A DNA stretch of 5,360 bases from a virus. Its lineage: Duplodnaviria; Heunggongvirae; Uroviricota; Caudoviricetes. The translations under genes and the position numbers were made by a program. The DNA lies in IMG/VR virus record IMGVR_UViG_2706794677_000009. One strand, written 5' to 3'. Below, piece by piece: positions 1 through 4,876 of this stretch. The stretch's first letter is position 1. Every line of letters begins with the position of its first letter. Below the pieces are notes generated by a model. The model was not told where the DNA came from. It saw nothing but the letters and a program-made list of their open reading frames with translations, and made no database searches.

Positions 1-709
1 GGTTTGGGCATGATACTGATGTAGTCACGCTTTATCGTTTTCACGAAGCTCTCTGCTATTCCGTTACTCTCCGGACTCCGCACCGCCGTGTTCTTCGGTT
101 CAAGTCCCAACATCCGGGCGAACTGGCGTGTTTCATTAGCCCGGTAGCATGAACCATTATCCGTCAGCCACTCCACTGGAGACGACGGAAGATCGTTGCC
201 GAAGCGGCGTTCCACCGCTCCCAGCATGACGTCCTGTACTGTTTCACTGTTGAAGCCGCCGGTAGTCACCGCCCAGTGCAGTGCCTCACGATCACAGCAG
301 TCCAGCGCGAACGTGACACGCAGTCTCTCTCCGTTATCACAGCAGAACTCGAACCCGTCAGAGCACCATCGCTGATTGCTTTCTTTCACGGCCACTCTGC
401 CTGTATGTGCCCGTTTCGATGGCGGTACAGCAGGTTTTCGCTCAAGCAACAGCGCATTCTGGCGCATGATCCGGTAAACACGTTTGGCATTGATCGCAGG
501 CATACCATCAAGTTCTGCCTGTCTGCGAAGCAGCGCCCATACCCGACGATAACCATACGTGGGCAGCTCTCCGATAACATGGTGTATACGGAGAAGCACA
601 TCCGTATCATCAGTGTGACGACTGCGGCGGCCATCCATCCAGTCATCGGTTCGTCTGAGAATGACGTGCAACTGCGCACGCGACACCCGGAGACAACGGC
701 TGACTAAGC

Positions 710-1457
<748 letters not shown>

Positions 1458-1515
1458 CGAAAGTATTTAGCGGGCATGAAAATGGCAAATAACGGTCAAA
1501 CATCGTGGCGTTGAC
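1458..1515 (+). mobile_element. Probable right terminal region of the IS21-family element (istB stop to element end, ending ...GTTGACA/C)
   Basis: A ~58-bp segment between the istB stop and the start of the IS2 repeat, ending in ...CA as IS21-family termini usually do. The boundary is inferred and uncertain by 1-2 bp. Confidence 0.4.
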
Positions 1516-1671
1516 ACAATTGCGATCTTTTCCTGTGTGGTACGCCGTCTGCGTTTCTCCGGCCCTAAGACATCAATCATCTGTACTCCAATGACTAGTC
1601 TAAAAACTAGTATTAAGACTATCACTTATTTAAGTGATACTGGTTGTCTGGAGATTCAGGGGGCCAGTCTA
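1516..1671 (-). repeat. Truncated IS2 left end (terminal 156 bp including the inverted repeat and the first ~20 codons of insC); exact direct repeat of 1011..1166
   Basis: Base-by-base comparison of 1011..1166 with 1516..1671 shows identity over 156 bp. The flanking bases differ (1010 a vs 1515 c). Confidence 0.9.
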
Positions 1672-1791
1672 CGGACATTTTCTGCCTGTGGACCAGGAAA
1701 GTGCACGGGTGCTTTCCACTCCCATGAAGCCCGGCAATCCGCGCAGATACAGTAATAAACGAACTGACAGCAGTAAGATGGAGCGTTTCTT

Positions 1792-2049
1792 TTGAACAAC
1801 CAGACAATGACTTTTACCCCTGAACAATTGCGTAAACACGCGCAGGAAATGCTGCGTCATGCTGAACAACTCGAAAAAACGGGCATAACAAAAGACGCTA
1901 TCCGTAAAGATATGGTACCCGCGCTTCGGGAACTGATGCAGGCGAAGCATCGCGCACAGAAAGCAGTAGATGAGCTGGTGGACTGTGTGGCAGAGCTGGA
2001 AACCAGAGTCGGAAAGTTTGAAAAACTGGTGCAGGAGGTGCTGCGCTGA
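1792..2049 (+). CDS. Hypothetical small phage protein (nin-region type, predicted helical/coiled-coil); start is TTG 1792 or ATG 1807
   Basis: Open frame of 85 codons with a GGAG Shine-Dalgarno-like motif (1780..1783) about 8 nt before TTG 1792. Its stop TGA (2047..2049) overlaps the ATG of the next gene (TGATG). Charged, heptad-like sequence. No family recognised. Confidence 0.55.
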   Translation: MNNQTMTFTPEQLRKHAQEMLRHAEQLEKTGITKDAIRKDMVPALRELMQAKHRAQKAVDELVDCVAELETRVGKFEKLVQEVLR

Positions 2050-2423: not shown

Positions 2424-3274
2424 AACTGGAAGATTTACCGAAATACTACTCCCCAAAATCCCCTTGCCTGACCGATGCATCGGCCTCAACGTCAAAAGAT
2501 GCGCTGAGTATCACTGATGTGATGGCCGCGCAGGGCATGACACAGAATCGGGCTGAGATGGGGTTTTCTGCGTTCCTGGGGAAAATGGGCATCAGTATGA
2601 ATGACAGGGCGCGGGCAACAGAATTACTGGCAGATTATGCACTCAGTCGGTGCGATCGTGTGGCGGCGTTGAGAAAACTTCCGGCAGAAATAAAACCGGT
2701 AGTGATGCGCATTATGGCTTCGTACGCTTTTGAGGATTATGCCCGCAGCGCAGCGAGTAAAAAGCAGTGCCCTTGTTGCTATGGGGAAAAATTTATTGAA
2801 AGCGTAGTTTTTACAAACAAGGTCCAGTATCCGGATGGTAAGCCGCCGGTATGGGCAAAGTGTACGAAAGGTGTGTATCCGTCTTACTGGGAAGAATGGA
2901 AAAAAGTCAGGGAGGTGGTAAAAGTTGCCTGTCCGGAGTGTGGCGGAAAGGGTGAGGTTTCCACCGCCTGTAAGGATTGCCGTGGGCGTGGTGTCGCCAT
3001 TCATCGTGAAGAGTCGGTAAAACGTGGTATGCCTGTTATCAGAGACTGCCAGCGTTGTGGTGGTCGTGGCTATGAAAGACTACCATCAACGGAGGCATTT
3101 AATGCTATATGCGAGGTGACAAACCAGATAACACGCGCGTCATGGGAAAAAACAGTTAAGAAATTCTATGATGCGCTGGTGACTCGGTTTGATATTGAAG
3201 AAGCATGGGCTGAGCGGCAGTTAAAAAAGGTAACTAGGTTGATTTTTCCGGAATCTGTGGTAAATTCGTCATAA
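2420..3274 (+). CDS. Q: Late-gene antitermination protein Q (phage 82 / Qin QuuQ-like family) with a cysteine-rich zinc-binding region
   Basis: 284 aa. The N-terminus (LEDLPKYYSPKSPCLTDASASTSKDALSITDVMAAQGM) resembles my recollection of Qin-prophage QuuQ. Three CxxCxGxG repeats lie at aa 171-178, 184-191 and 210-217. The position (after rusA, before the terminator and tRNAs) is canonical for Q. ATGA start/stop overlap with rusA. Confidence 0.75.
   Translation: MKLEDLPKYYSPKSPCLTDASASTSKDALSITDVMAAQGMTQNRAEMGFSAFLGKMGISMNDRARATELLADYALSRCDRVAALRKLPAEIKPVVMRIMASYAFEDYARSAASKKQCPCCYGEKFIESVVFTNKVQYPDGKPPVWAKCTKGVYPSYWEEWKKVREVVKVACPECGGKGEVSTACKDCRGRGVAIHREESVKRGMPVIRDCQRCGGRGYERLPSTEAFNAICEVTNQITRASWEKTVKKFYDALVTRFDIEEAWAERQLKKVTRLIFPESVVNSS
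3239..3266 (+). promoter_or_regulatory. Candidate late promoter pR' (sigma70-like: -35 TTGATT, 16-bp spacer, extended -10 TGgTAAATT), overlapping the last codons of Q
   Basis: TTGATT at 3239..3244 and TAAATT at 3261..3266 preceded by TG at 3258..3259. A terminator ~45 nt downstream fits the short pR'-tR' unit of lambdoid phages. Hexamer matches are imperfect. Confidence 0.4.
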
Positions 3275-3313
3275 CTATGGGCGTTTTATGCCTGACGTTA
3301 GAAGAGTTTCTAC

Positions 3314-3340
3314 AACCCGCCGCCGAGCGGGTTTTTTATT
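3314..3340 (+). terminator. Intrinsic terminator (candidate tR'): 6-7 bp GC stem ACCCGC/GCGGGT, 6-nt loop, then TTTTTTATT
   Basis: 3315..3320 pairs with 3327..3332, followed by the T-run 3332..3340. Confidence 0.6.
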
Positions 3341-3367
3341 GCGGAATTAATTACGGACCGTTATTAT
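3339..3367 (+). promoter_or_regulatory. Possible promoter for the tRNA genes (-35 TTGCGG, 17-bp spacer, -10 TATTAT)
   Basis: TTGCGG at 3339..3344 and TATTAT at 3362..3367. The -10 ends 10 nt before the mature tRNA 5' end at 3377. The -35 is weak. Confidence 0.3.
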
Positions 3368-3376
3368 TCTGCTCCC

Positions 3377-3452
3377 GGCCCTTTAGCTCAGTGGTGAGAG
3401 CGAGCGACTCATAATCGCCAGGTCGCTGGTTCAAATCCAGCAAGGGCCACCA
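3377..3452 (+). tRNA. tRNA with anticodon CAU, most likely tRNA-Ile2 (lysidine type, decodes AUA); elongator tRNA-Met not excluded
   Basis: Manually folded 76-nt cloverleaf: acceptor GGCCCTT/AAGGGCC, D-arm GCTC-AGTGGTGA-GAGC, anticodon loop CTCATAA, T-arm GCTGG-TTCAAAT-CCAGC, discriminator A, encoded CCA. Close to my recollection of E. coli ileX and of the ileZ gene of Stx phages. Confidence 0.88.
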
Positions 3453-3552
3453 TCACAAACCGCCATTAGCTTATCAGGAAGAGCAGACGACACGATAACA
3501 GGGTTGTTGGTGCGGGGGCGGGTCCCCGATGGCGGTCCATTATCGGTATTCA

Positions 3553-3629
3553 GCGTTGTTAGCTCAGCCGGACAGAGCAATTGCCTTCTAAGCAATCGGT
3601 CACTGGTTCGAATCCAGTACAGCGCGCCA
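3553..3629 (+). tRNA. tRNA-Arg, anticodon UCU (decodes AGA/AGG)
   Basis: Manually folded 77-nt cloverleaf: acceptor GCGTTGT/ACAGCGC (one G-U pair), D-arm GCTC...GAGC, anticodon stem ATTGC/GCAAT with loop CTTCTAA, T-arm ACTGG-TTCGAAT-CCAGT, discriminator G, encoded CCA. Confidence 0.9.
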
Positions 3630-4093: not shown

Positions 4094-4484
4094 ATACATA
4101 TCTGGATTATCACCTGTTACGGTAAAAAGTGATTGCTTACTGTTTTTGTGAATGGCATTGCAGCAGCCGGATAATGTCAGTGCTGGCTGACGGTGTGCTG
4201 GTGGCGGGTGTGGTGGTTGTTGCTTTCCCGTTGCTGAAAAAGAAAACGCCAGACTGTTAGCCGGGTATCAGTTAGCGGGAGAAATTTTTAAATACTTCAC
4301 AATTCAGGCGGTTGACTGTTGTCTGGTTTGCGGGGAGTTTGTTAAAAGAAACTGGCATGGTGAATCCCCCTGTGCGGAGGGGCAATCAGCGAGTAGGTAT
4401 ATGGGATAATCGCGGATTCAGGTGCTGGTACTGAATTCACCGGGAGGCACCCGGCACCATGCAATGGCACATAGCGCCACTCTC

Positions 4485-4520
4485 CAGCCCCTCTCCGGAG
4501 GGGCTGTTTATATTGATTTT
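4485..4520 (+). terminator. Strong intrinsic terminator: perfect 9-bp GC-rich stem CAGCCCCTC/GAGGGGCTG, 4-nt loop, then TTTATATTGATTTT
   Basis: 4485..4493 is the exact reverse complement of 4498..4506, followed by a T-rich tract on the plus strand only. It lies 21 bp from the stop of the convergent minus-strand gene. Confidence 0.65.
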
Positions 4521-4538: not shown

Positions 4539-4571
4539 CCTTATGGACTTTGTTGTTTTAGTCCATAAGGA
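4539..4571. repeat. Perfect 11-bp inverted repeat (TCCTTATGGAC ... GTCCATAAGGA) with a 11-nt T-rich spacer, spanning the stop codon of the minus-strand gene
   Basis: 4539..4549 is the exact reverse complement of 4561..4571. Confidence 0.8.
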
Positions 4572-4876
4572 CATATTTGCAGAGTGCAACGGTTATTAAA
4601 GCATTCATTCAATACGTTATCTGTATTTGTAGGGCATTCCTGGCTATTTTTGATTGAATTCCAGAATGTTTTATTGAATGGTACTACGTTGTAAATGGTT
4701 ACAGGTAGCACTTTGTTATTGAGCATGATGCCTGTGTGAGTCAGTGTAAATATACTTTCAGGAGGTAAGAAAGCATCCGATTGATACCAGATTATTAATT
4801 TTATTTTACTCCATATGACTGAAAAAGATATTCCGCATGATGGCTGGATAACTGTATCAATCACAATCCACTTCAT
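4541..4876 (-). CDS. Hypothetical 111-aa protein, Trp/aromatic-rich N-terminal part and C-terminal C-x11-C-x4-C-x4-C cluster; orphan cargo gene
   Basis: ATG at 4876 preceded by AAGGAAA about 6 nt upstream (good Shine-Dalgarno). Stop TAA at 4541..4543. AT-rich codon usage. Promoter-like hexamers lie upstream. No family recognised. Confidence 0.62.

Follow-up and report, generated by a model that had tools for sequence, protein, structure and literature searches.

We analysed a stretch of DNA of 5,360 nt (IMG/VR virus record IMGVR_UViG_2706794677_000009, referred to below as the window) and conclude that its positions 3239-3340 very probably make up the cassette that regulates the late genes of a lambda-type prophage, with an antiterminator of the Q-lambda family. 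[quoted passage not shown] The cassette is complete, but the late operon has been lost here and the prophage is a remnant. We infer the start site, the pause, the binding of Q and the efficiency of the terminator for the window sequence, on which sigma70 RNA polymerase would start constitutively at pR', at about A3273, and sigma region 2 would bind again to the non-template strand, at AACTAT-GGG (+1 to +9); at TATG, near +17/+18, the scrunched complex would then pause. Without Q, the polymerase would escape and stop at tR' (+42 to +61 plus the U-tract), releasing an RNA of ~66 nt; with Q, the protein would bind the spacer TTTCCGGAATCTGTGG, as the putative Q-binding element (QBE), and load onto the paused complex, and the Q-loaded polymerase would read through tR' into the downstream genes. 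The coordinates of the features are collected in Table 1.

Table 1. Features of the late regulatory region and its immediate surroundings, in window coordinates
Feature	Position	Strand	Remarks
Q antiterminator gene, 284 aa	2420-3274	+	Q-lambda family
8-bp deletion site	3228-3238	+	located by aligning E. coli 042 and phage mEp460_ev081 to the window
pR' -35 element, TTGATT	3239-3244	+	read directly from sequence
Promoter spacer TTTCCGGAATCTGTGG, 16 nt	3245-3260	+	candidate Q-binding element (QBE)
TGg, final 3 nt of spacer	3258-3260	+	abuts the -10, making an extended -10
pR' -10 element, TAAATT	3261-3266	+	same hexamer in lambda and P22
Predicted +1	A3273	+	spacing from -10 as in lambda/P22
Sigma-dependent pause element AACTATGGG	3273-3281 (+1 to +9)	+	-10-like AACTAT plus discriminator-like GGG triplet
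Candidate 5'-terminal RNA hairpin	3273-3299	+	AAC(1-3):GUU(25-27), UGGGC(6-10):GCCUG(18-22)
TATG pause-site motif	3287-3290 (+15 to +18)	+	fits T-N-Y-G consensus
A/U-rich linker AGAAGAGUUUCUAC	3300-3313	+	variable in length and sequence across the family
tR' intrinsic terminator (predicted)	3314-3340	+	stem 3314-3333, U-tract 3332-3337, then AUU
pT tRNA promoter	3339-3367	+	-35 TTGCGG 3339-3344, -10 TATTAT 3362-3367
First downstream gene: tRNA, anticodon CAT	3377-3452	+	Met by ARAGORN; ileZ / tRNA-Ile in 933W/RefSeq

The protein encoded upstream of the promoter matches Pfam PF03589 (E=7e-55), which is the Q-lambda family (PMC9388147), and aligns with the lambda Q structure PDB 7ubm (E=1.8e-40) over query residues 1-113 and 182-273; residues 114-181 make up an extra CxxC (zinc-finger-like) insert of ~68 aa in the 'arm'. 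The C-terminal tail of 11 aa, LIFPESVVNSS, is abnormal; four aligned relatives all end ...(V/I)TR. Relatives carry a tandem AGGTAACT AGGTAACA where the window retains one copy, and Q overlaps pR' because this 8-bp deletion takes out the normal TAA stop and adds 11 codons, moving the stop TAA to 3272-3274; in relatives Q ends 5 nt ahead of the -35 element. The deletion is common to only 2 of 80 close IMG/VR relatives, and the identical 284-aa Q is present on chromosomes including HE616528.1. The overlap with Q, which the sequence-only reading had singled out as notable, is therefore real in this DNA and is an artefact of a lineage-specific 8-bp deletion, not a design feature of the unit. In lambda, the C terminus of Q refolds and touches the Q torus (PMC9388147), and since the 11-aa extension sits at the terminus that refolds there, the function of Q may be impaired here.

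Directly after the normal end of Q, at 3239-3266, lies a predicted sigma70 promoter, and the elements of the sigma70-like promoter with an extended -10 that had been placed earlier in the last Q codons are found at just these positions. The TTGATT -35 is invariant across all class-A units, and the -10 and start geometry equal those of the annotated P late of P22. The region matches lambda and P22 in its -10, in the distance to the start and in its pause element; together with the Q-lambda-family gene upstream, this match bears out the earlier assignment as a pR'-tR' Q-utilisation unit.

The pause element of the window differs by one base from AACGATGGG, which is both the lambda pause element and the consensus of the family, and the distance from the TAAATT -10 to the pause element is 6 nt in the window as in lambda. 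The consensus is present in 57 of the 73 close relatives, among which only hexamer positions 3 and 4 vary, and never A2, A5 or T6; the window carries a rare G4-to-T change that is found in four of the 73. Hexamer positions 3 and 4 are those that matter least to sigma region 2. The TATG that follows lies 1 nt farther from the pause element than the corresponding TNYG of lambda (+14 to +17), and because its positions belonged to our search pattern, the IMG/VR set is bound to show them conserved. T-N-Y-G is the consensus for a scrunched sigma-dependent pause (PMC9191641).

Past the pause site and ahead of the genes that follow sits a predicted intrinsic terminator, tR', in which the stem AACCCGC/GCGGGTT encloses a 6-nt loop, CGCCGA, and is followed by TTTTAT (free energy -11.2 kcal/mol; z = -3.1 vs shuffles). 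Its stem begins 41 nt past +1 and spans +42 to +61. The terminator that had been proposed ~45 nt past the start is thus present, at a measured gap of 41 nt to the stem, and the terminated RNA predicted from it, running from 3273 to ~3338-3340 (~66-68 nt), agrees with the short late transcript of ~65 nt that was expected. Across the family, at least four unrelated hairpins occupy the position of tR'; three stem pairs of tR' exhibit changes on both sides (co-variation), and 99.8% of the cells in the terminator helix are paired, versus 25-51% when the 3' partners are slid. The T-run ends between +51 and +71 in 71 unique units, with a median of +65, the P22 terminator ends at +59 and the mapped 3' end of the Qin unit lies at +67, so that the spacing first described as unusually tight turns out to be the family norm. 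The first hairpin after pR' in phage 933W and in Sakai Sp5 has the same stem as the window tR' and is apparently read through in these prophages, because their mapped primary transcript is 258 nt long; the efficiency of the window tR' therefore cannot be assumed.

In an Rfam search, no family was matched at its gathering score in the short RNA, and a Trp-leader or attenuator reading of the region was set aside, the match to Trp_leader (25.7 bits) being below the cut-off of 41. Also rejected was a small leader ORF (ATG at +5; 3277-3414), which does not look coding because the family variation hits first codon positions (V/F/I/L, L/V); its third codon positions were fixed by the search pattern and are uninformative on coding.

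The pR'-tR' unit was found in 78 of the 78 close IMG/VR Q relatives with downstream sequence, and its layout is unchanged beside Q proteins that are just 35-62% identical. Of 5426 complete E. coli genomes, 2394 (44%) contain the module, which is presumably also present in Shigella sonnei. A taxonomic scan of genome contigs (596 Gb) with AACNATGGGCNTTNTATG, a pattern that is too short for so much sequence, gave only chance matches in unrelated phyla among the matches listed. Nine clusters of Q pair one-to-one with types of promoter spacer, and the stretch from +1 to +18 is constant among them. Such tracking of the Q type by the spacer is what a Q-binding site would give, and the lambda QBE is promoter DNA that lies upstream of the polymerase at its pause (PMC9388147); these comparisons make the spacer TTTCCGGAATCTGTGG a candidate Q-binding element of the window.

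The one point that is possibly new concerns a 5'-terminal hairpin derived from the pause element. We tentatively suggest, as a possibility that we regard as somewhat doubtful, that late-leader RNAs of the Q-lambda type might carry a conserved stem-loop at +1 that is built from the pause element, in which AAC(G) would pair with (C)GUU ~20-25 nt downstream and GGGC with GYYY. In RNAalifold analyses and pair counts, 100% of the cells of helix 1 are paired and four pairs vary on one side only, while seven positions of the 5' region that lie outside the search pattern are limited to bases compatible with pairing to their fixed partners. The helix is retained at differing spacings in lambda, P22, ES18, Edno5, YeP1, mEp237 and SP-016, and both partners of a pair have changed in ES18 and phiEt88 (G4-C to A4-U) and also in YeP1 (C3-G to G3-C). 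The helices are weak, the shuffle tests of single sequences are individually modest (P = 0.004 to 0.55), and the G4-to-T change of the window weakens the closing helix. If the hairpin exists, the same 27 nt would be used twice, in DNA as the sigma70 pause signal and in RNA as a cap-like 5' hairpin, which might shield the late transcripts, short RNA and long mRNA alike, from decay that depends on the 5' end or might otherwise aid Q-modified complexes; the ~66-nt RNA, encoded in ~44% of complete E. coli genomes, would then be a stable species open to host regulation. The existence of such a hairpin would be inexpensive to check.

Downstream of the unit, the window carries two tRNAs, an STnc100-like RNA, a PmrD/IraM-like gene on the opposite strand and a DUF1737 gene. 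The tRNA promoter pT starts inside the tail of tR' and adjoins the cassette without being part of it; window positions 3337-3457 are 95% identical to 933W 21080-21196, a segment that holds an annotated 'pT; putative tRNA promoter'. Intact relatives have holin and lysozyme genes downstream; neither the window nor the 6 kb that follow in related chromosomes showed lysis genes or other late genes, and the window is devoid of an stx gene. On the chromosomes with an identical Q, IS elements come after the DUF1737 gene, and within the window IS2 and an IS21 fragment occupy positions 1-1672, in place of the early region. With IS elements upstream and in the place of the late genes, and with the abnormal tail of Q, the constitutive short RNA is likely to be the sole surviving output of the unit.

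The promoter hexamers might have been a chance match and the hairpin a mere terminator of the Q (early right) transcript, a reading that draws on the agreement of the hexamers with the sigma70 consensus at only 8 of 12 positions, which is also why a generic promoter scan of the window did not list the pR' site. We consider it exceedingly improbable, since the window holds a single copy of the composite TTG-N16-TGNTAAATT-N6-AACNATGGG and 200 shuffles yield none, even with two mismatches allowed, since lambda and P22 have an identical architecture with an annotated start, and since the unit is invariant in all 78 relatives and persists beside diverged Q proteins. To the possibility that the unit is a dead relic we give about an even chance. 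The sequence would then be intact but would control nothing, Q being unexpressed or inactive and the late operon gone, and it would persist by clonal inheritance instead of selection. The replacement of the early region by IS2 and the IS21 fragment, the IS elements and the lack of called lysis genes after the DUF1737 gene on the identical-Q chromosomes, the frameshifting deletion at the end of Q and the rare substitution in the pause element are all in keeping with such a fate. On the other hand, lambda pR' is constitutive and requires no phage factor, and the short RNA should therefore still arise here; moreover, intact phages, mEp460_ev081 for one, have the same promoter, pause element and terminator apart from G4-to-T. 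In any case, decay of this kind bears on the current use of the unit and not on its identity as a Q-lambda-type late cassette.

The ~66-nt RNA might also be more than the by-product of a switch and act in trans as an Hfq-binding sRNA on the host, analogous to StxS or lambda 6S RNA, although we think this unlikely. There is precedent in StxS, which comes from a pR'-tR' unit and binds Hfq, and in lambda 6S RNA, which is among the Hfq-bound RNAs and has a few targets. The ~66-nt RNA combines a U-tailed terminator with an A/G-rich linker (AGAAGAG), features that are typical of Hfq-binding RNAs; the unit occurs in 44% of complete E. coli genomes, its short RNA should be constitutive even in prophage remnants, and the K-12 homologue is abundant enough to appear as a curated 3' end. 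Against such a role, the pause element and the possible 5' hairpin account for the sole strongly conserved stretch (+1 to +27), and the linker, the single-stranded part in which one would look for a seed, is free to vary in sequence and length; a scan within the window for sites complementary to the linker gave -15.9 kcal/mol, no better than the mean of -16.6 kcal/mol for shuffled seeds. Neither similarity to StxS nor an Rfam family was detected, and two Hfq-site entries located in Sakai in a spot check, EcOnc10 and EcOnc33, sit elsewhere in their prophages. HnrS (EcOnc10-12), a 66-nt multicopy prophage sRNA of suggestive size, was rejected as a counterpart on account of its location, which is not downstream of Q: EcOnc10, at Sakai 2234239-2234287(+), is flanked by the Rz endopeptidase gene and the DNase/terminase genes of Sp12 and has the opposite orientation to the late genes. 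EcOnc33 (~71 nt, prophage Sp6) was likewise discarded, as it maps not to pR' but opposite the 3' end of an esterase gene (ECs_1527), on the other strand. Both positions were traced through Tree et al. 2014, whose list of Hfq sites was spot-checked.

A leader of ~60-70 nt is normal for P22 and for a large subfamily of long Q-lambda proteins with expanded zinc fingers, and the 194 nt of lambda is the exception. The strict pairing of Q clusters with spacers amounts to a ready list of predicted Q-binding sites for further Q specificities. To judge from the sequences, a constitutive short RNA would be made from a module that exists in nearly half of the complete E. coli genomes and in the Qin prophage of K-12, an RNA that is uncharacterised in the literature we found.

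Several known systems can be set beside the window. Phage 82, suggested earlier as a comparator, was the wrong choice, because Q82 belongs to another family, PF06323 (PMC9388147); Qin, suggested along with it, is a valid one, with a homologous long Q and a homologous unit. StxS (EcOnc15) resembles the window RNA in that both derive from a constitutive late promoter, end before the late genes and in principle occupy the same position. StxS starts out as a primary transcript of 258 nt, from which RNase E produces the 74-nt form; its demonstrated targets are rpoS and stx1B. It is tied to the 144-aa Q of Stx1/Stx2a phages and has been reported to be absent downstream of the other Q clade (Sy et al.). 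That 144-aa Q is of a family other than the Q-lambda protein of 284 aa in the window, and in a blastn-short comparison of positions 3200-3345 with the Q-stx region of 933W the sole match was the 24-nt terminator hairpin (E=0.13). Since StxS belongs with another family of Q, is 258 nt processed to 74 nt and has nothing in common with the window beyond that hairpin, the link to StxS that had been suggested for the short RNA does not hold, and the label should not be transferred to this common module.

The Qin prophage of K-12 encodes a homologous long Q, ydfT (quuQ), of class C, and its unit shares with the window the region from +1 to +27, AACGATGGGCTTTGTATACCCGACGTT, and the CCCGC/GCGGG core of the terminator. 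A curated dominant Term-seq 3' end at 1642356(-) lies at +67 from the predicted start of the Qin unit; this end appears at two places of a curated table that lists three growth conditions, and by it the K-12 terminator works in vivo. The parts of the Cappable-seq supplements that we consulted list no mapped start for the K-12 homologue, and a literature search for ydfT/quuQ transcripts yielded nothing relevant. The Qin promoter differs from that of the window in its -35 (TTGCAT), spacer (TTTTCAAAAAATATGGA) and -10 (TAAAAT), which is what another Q specificity would give, and its downstream genes are cspF/cspB where the window has tRNAs.

With lambda, whose cassette mechanism has been worked out structurally (PMC9388147, PMC9191641), the window shares the logic of a pR'-SDPE-tR' cassette, the family of Q, the -10 TAAATT and the TNYG pause motif. 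It departs from lambda by one base in the pause element, which lambda likewise has at +1, and in the sequence of the QBE; the arm of lambda Q is a single zinc ribbon, whereas that of the window Q is expanded by 68 aa, and the terminated lambda RNA (6S RNA) is 194 nt long, compared with the ~66 nt predicted here. In phage P22 the arrangement P late - qut - t late follows gene 23 and, as in the window, combines an antiterminator of the Q-lambda family with a TAAATT -10, in the form TAAATT-N6-AACGATGG that is also found in lambda. The annotations of P22 include P late, the qut site, the 5' nucleotide of the late RNA (the first A of AACGATGG) and tR'. P22 gp23, of 207 aa, is without the extra zinc-finger insert of the window Q, its spacer (QBE) is TTTTGAATAAAGTTGGG in place of TTTCCGGAATCTGTGG, its pause hexamer is followed by GG instead of GGG, and its terminator hairpin is unrelated in sequence to the window tR'. 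The P22 terminator nevertheless lies at +31 to +59, close by the start like the window stem at +42 to +61, and the short leaders of the two are therefore about equal in size.

The late promoter of the unit is, as far as its sequence can tell, of the lambda pR' type. It has a 16-nt spacer with TGg immediately 5' of the -10 hexamer, and six bases 3' of that hexamer stands AACTATGGG. The arrangement reads TTGATT-16-TAAATT-CGTCAT-AACTATGGGCGTTT in the window, as compared with TTGACT-17-TAAATT-TGACTC-AACGATGGGTTAAT in lambda and TTGACT-17-TAAATT-TGACTC-AACGATGGATAAAT in P22. The composite TTG-N16-TGNTAAATT-N6-AACNATGGG has a single occurrence in the window; 200 shuffles gave none, even when two mismatches were tolerated. 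A generic promoter scan does not call this promoter because its hexamers match at only 8 of 12 positions. Annotated in the P22 record are the late promoter, the qut site, tR' and the nucleotide with which the late RNA begins. As the P22 RNA begins on the initial A of AACGAT, the start in the window was placed at A3273, and the predicted RNA from there to the U-tract is 66-68 nt long. In lambda, AACGAT-GGG acts as the sigma-dependent pause element. The scrunched complex pauses preferentially at T-N-Y-G, at +14 to +17 (PMC9191641); the corresponding bases in the window are TATG, at +15 to +18. The tR' hairpin alone folds at -11.2 kcal/mol (z = -3.1). The sequence-only reading, which had recognised here a sigma70-like promoter with an extended -10, an intrinsic terminator downstream of the start and, from the two, a pR'-tR' Q-utilisation unit, holds as an observation and is correct at its core, given the lambda-type promoter, the pause element, the terminator and a Q of the Q-lambda family.

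Features of the window and their coordinates
Feature	Position	Strand	Remarks
IS3-family transposase genes	within 1-1672	minus	presumably IS2
~160-nt IS end, two copies	1005-1172 and 1510-1672		taken to be the IS2 left end, orfA start included
istB 3' fragment of IS21	1173 to ~1457		flanked by the two IS-end copies
ORF, 85 aa			in lambdoid fragment, listed before RusA
RusA	2049-2423
Antiterminator Q, 284 aa	2420-3274		stop TAA at 3272-3274
pR' -35	3239-3244		TTGATT
TGg	3258-3260
pR' -10	3261-3266		TAAATT
Pause element	3273-3281
tR' hairpin	3314-3333		AACCCGC-CGCCGA-GCGGGTT, then TTTTAT (terminator scan)
tRNA promoter pT	3339-3367	plus	-35 TTGCGG, -10 TATTAT
tRNA, anticodon CAT	3377-3452	plus	ARAGORN: Met
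tRNA Arg-TCT	3553-3629
STnc100 (RF02076) sRNA family match	4326-4515	plus	Rfam, 132 bits against cut-off of 47; full-length
Terminator of STnc100 match	4485-4506
ORF	4541-4876	minus
DUF1737 gene			after the minus-strand ORF 4541-4876

The Q protein matches Pfam PF03589 (E=7e-55) and the solved structures of lambda Q (7ubm, E=1.8e-40), with its residues 1-113 and 182-273 aligning to residues 1-113 and 116-207 of lambda Q, respectively. A 68-residue insert (residues 114-181, window 2759-2962) lies where the "arm" (zinc ribbon) of lambda Q begins; it carries extra CxxC pairs, in contrast to the single zinc ribbon of lambda, and a weak DnaJ CXXCXGXG match. Long arms of varying length are also found in Q relatives at 35-62% identity. 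PF03589, the Q-lambda family, is separate from Q21 (PF06530) and Q82 (PF06323) (PMC9388147), so that, of the two comparators named in the earlier reading, Qin is well chosen and phage 82 is not; lambda, P22 and Qin are the appropriate ones.

The overlap of pR' with the end of Q, to which significance had been attached, is present, and comparison of sequences marks it as an accident of the window's lineage. Across the region, phage mEp460_ev081 and E. coli 042 are ~96% identical to the window but are eight bases longer, with AGGTAACT AGGTAACA in tandem, and their Q ends ...KKVTR-stop five bases 5' of the -35, an ending found as well in lambda Q and three other relatives. The window retains one copy of the repeat and has lost the stop, whereby Q is extended by 11 codons (LIFPESVVNSS). 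Of 80 close relatives in IMG/VR, only 2 have this eight-base loss as well. The exact 284-aa Q is encoded on many chromosomes, among them HE616528.1, which we take to be Shigella sonnei 53G. The last residues of lambda Q refold and contact the Q torus (PMC9388147), so the added tail of the window Q may matter.

That the parts of the unit are functional is supported by several comparisons. The unit is present in all 78 close Q relatives with downstream sequence. Variation in its pause hexamer (AACGAT 57, AATGAT 5, AACTAT 4, AATAAT 4, AACAAT 2, AATTAT 1, plus two AAAGAT) is confined to positions 3 and 4, the ones least used by sigma region 2. At a 75% identity level, the Q proteins encoded upstream fall into nine clusters, each with its own type of -35, spacer and -10, including TTGATT / TTTCCSGAATCTGTGG / TAAATT, TTTACT / TTTCCSGAATYYGTG / TAATTT, TTGCAT / TTTTCAAAAAATATGGA / TAAGAT and TTGCAA / AGTTGCCGTTTTTGTG / TAAATT; the first 18 transcribed bases are constant across the clusters, though the search pattern itself accounts for part of this conservation. 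A promoter type that varies with Q, beside a constant +1 to +18, is as would be predicted if a binding site specific for Q adjoined a pause signal specific for the polymerase.

The spacing of the window unit, described earlier as unusually tight, proves to be normal. Units were gathered from IMG/VR by the pattern AACNATGGGCNTTNTATG and kept if preceded by a Q homologue and followed by a terminator; the addition of further loci from phages and E. coli brought the set to 71 unique units, in which the T-run ends at +51 to +71 (median +65). The P22 tR' spans +31 to +59. In K-12, Qin ydfT is followed by TTGCAT-17-TAAAAT-N6-AACGATGGGCTTTGTATACCCGACGTT...AAAACCCGCTGATGAGCGGGTTTTGTGC, and no gene or sRNA is annotated at this MG1655 pR'-tR' unit (~67 nt, downstream of ydfT; 1857-1923 (-) in the Qin locus L340, or NC_000913.3 1642356-1642422). 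In two places of their curated Term-seq table, Adams et al. 2021 list a dominant "orphan" 3' end at 1642356(-), which is +67 from the predicted start of the Qin unit.

At least four unrelated hairpins occupy the terminator position across the units (CCCGC/GCGGG, CCTCGC/GCGGGG, CCTCGGC/GCCGGGG and GCCCTGCGG/CCGTGGGGC), and in the common type three pairs are altered on both sides; terminator cells are paired overall in 99.8%, compared with 25-51% with slid partners. Sequence shared with other phages stops or starts at this point: one unit of class C, the class of K-12 Qin, has the 933W loop and downstream flank, and the similarity of the window to Stx phages begins at 3337. Such breaks make tR' the joint between the Q/pR' module and downstream insertions. 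Since pT begins within the tail of the tR' U-tract, the terminator, the promoter after it and the tRNA are crowded into ~60 nt; 933W, in which pT is annotated, shares 95% identity with window 3337-3457. Against the ARAGORN call of Met, the near-identical gene is ileZ / tRNA-Ile (AUA) in 933W and tRNA-Ile in the RefSeq E. coli 042, and the window gene is probably a lysidine-type tRNA-Ile2.

In 933W (L001 1147-1169) and Sakai Sp5 (L351 469-491), a hairpin with the window tR' stem and seven U's lies ~23-45 nt after the start of the Stx-phage pR'. The mapped primary transcript in this context is 258 nt and reaches a second terminator, which suggests that the first hairpin is leaky there or that ~50-nt products were missed. 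Efficient termination in the window is therefore an expectation, supported by the K-12 homologue only.

The host prophage of the window unit is decayed. Window 1-1672 is insertion-sequence debris, followed by a lambdoid prophage fragment. Where the identical Q occurs in other chromosomes, IS21 is intact (istA + istB) at the place corresponding to the istB fragment, so that an extra IS insertion or a rearrangement would have occurred in the window's strain. In the "moron" zone 3' of pR', the STnc100 match lies between the tRNAs and a minus-strand gene that is PmrD/IraM-like; its counterpart in related chromosomes matches PmrD (PF11183) and is annotated as IraM in E. coli 042.

We tentatively raise the possibility, itself rather doubtful, that the late RNA has a conserved and perhaps new 5' stem-loop built from the pause element. 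RNAalifold on 28 diverse units returned the terminator and a hairpin from nucleotide 1 (pairs A1-U27, A2-U26, C3-G25; U6-R22, G7-Y21, G8-Y20, G9-Y19, C10-G18). Positions 19-22 and 25-27 lie outside the unit search pattern and are each limited to partner-pairing bases in at least 33 of 34 distinct sequences, and all cells of the helix pair. The 3' arm is four bases nearer in lambda, P22 and mEp237 (AACGA/UCGUU); the arms are AACA/UGUU in ES18 and phiEt88 and AAGGA/UUCUU in YeP1, where C3-G becomes G3-C. The helices are weak and per-sequence shuffle tests modest (P = 0.004 to 0.55); in the window a G4-to-T change costs one pair, and the closing helix is absent from the minimum-energy fold. [quoted passage not shown] Given the part that 5'-terminal stem-loops play in the decay of E. 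coli mRNA, it would be expected to stabilise the late RNA.

An association of the short RNA with StxS, suggested earlier, has to be abandoned. As shown by Sy et al. 2020, Stx1 and Stx2a phages with a 144-aa Q produce StxS from their pR'-tR' interval, first as a transcript of 258 nt that RNase E then shortens to 74 nt, and the other Q clade lacks it; a sensitive blastn of window 3200-3345 against the 933W Q-to-stx region matched the 24-nt terminator hairpin only (E=0.13). HnrS, a 66-nt multicopy prophage sRNA, is likewise excluded by its location between the Rz and terminase genes, on the strand opposite the late genes. An Rfam search found no family for the short RNA. Analyses of linker and target sites gave no sign of a regulator role: the linker, where a seed would be expected, is not conserved across units, and a search for complementary sites within the window did no better than shuffles. 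With StxS and lambda 6S RNA (among the Hfq-bound RNAs) as precedents for a regulatory leader RNA, and with the unit module in 2394 of 5426 complete E. coli genomes, the short RNA may still be a regulator.

The window unit is a further member of the well-known Q-utilisation type and not a new kind; it is the 194-nt leader RNA of lambda that is the outlier in comparison with the compact P22, Qin and 71 related units.
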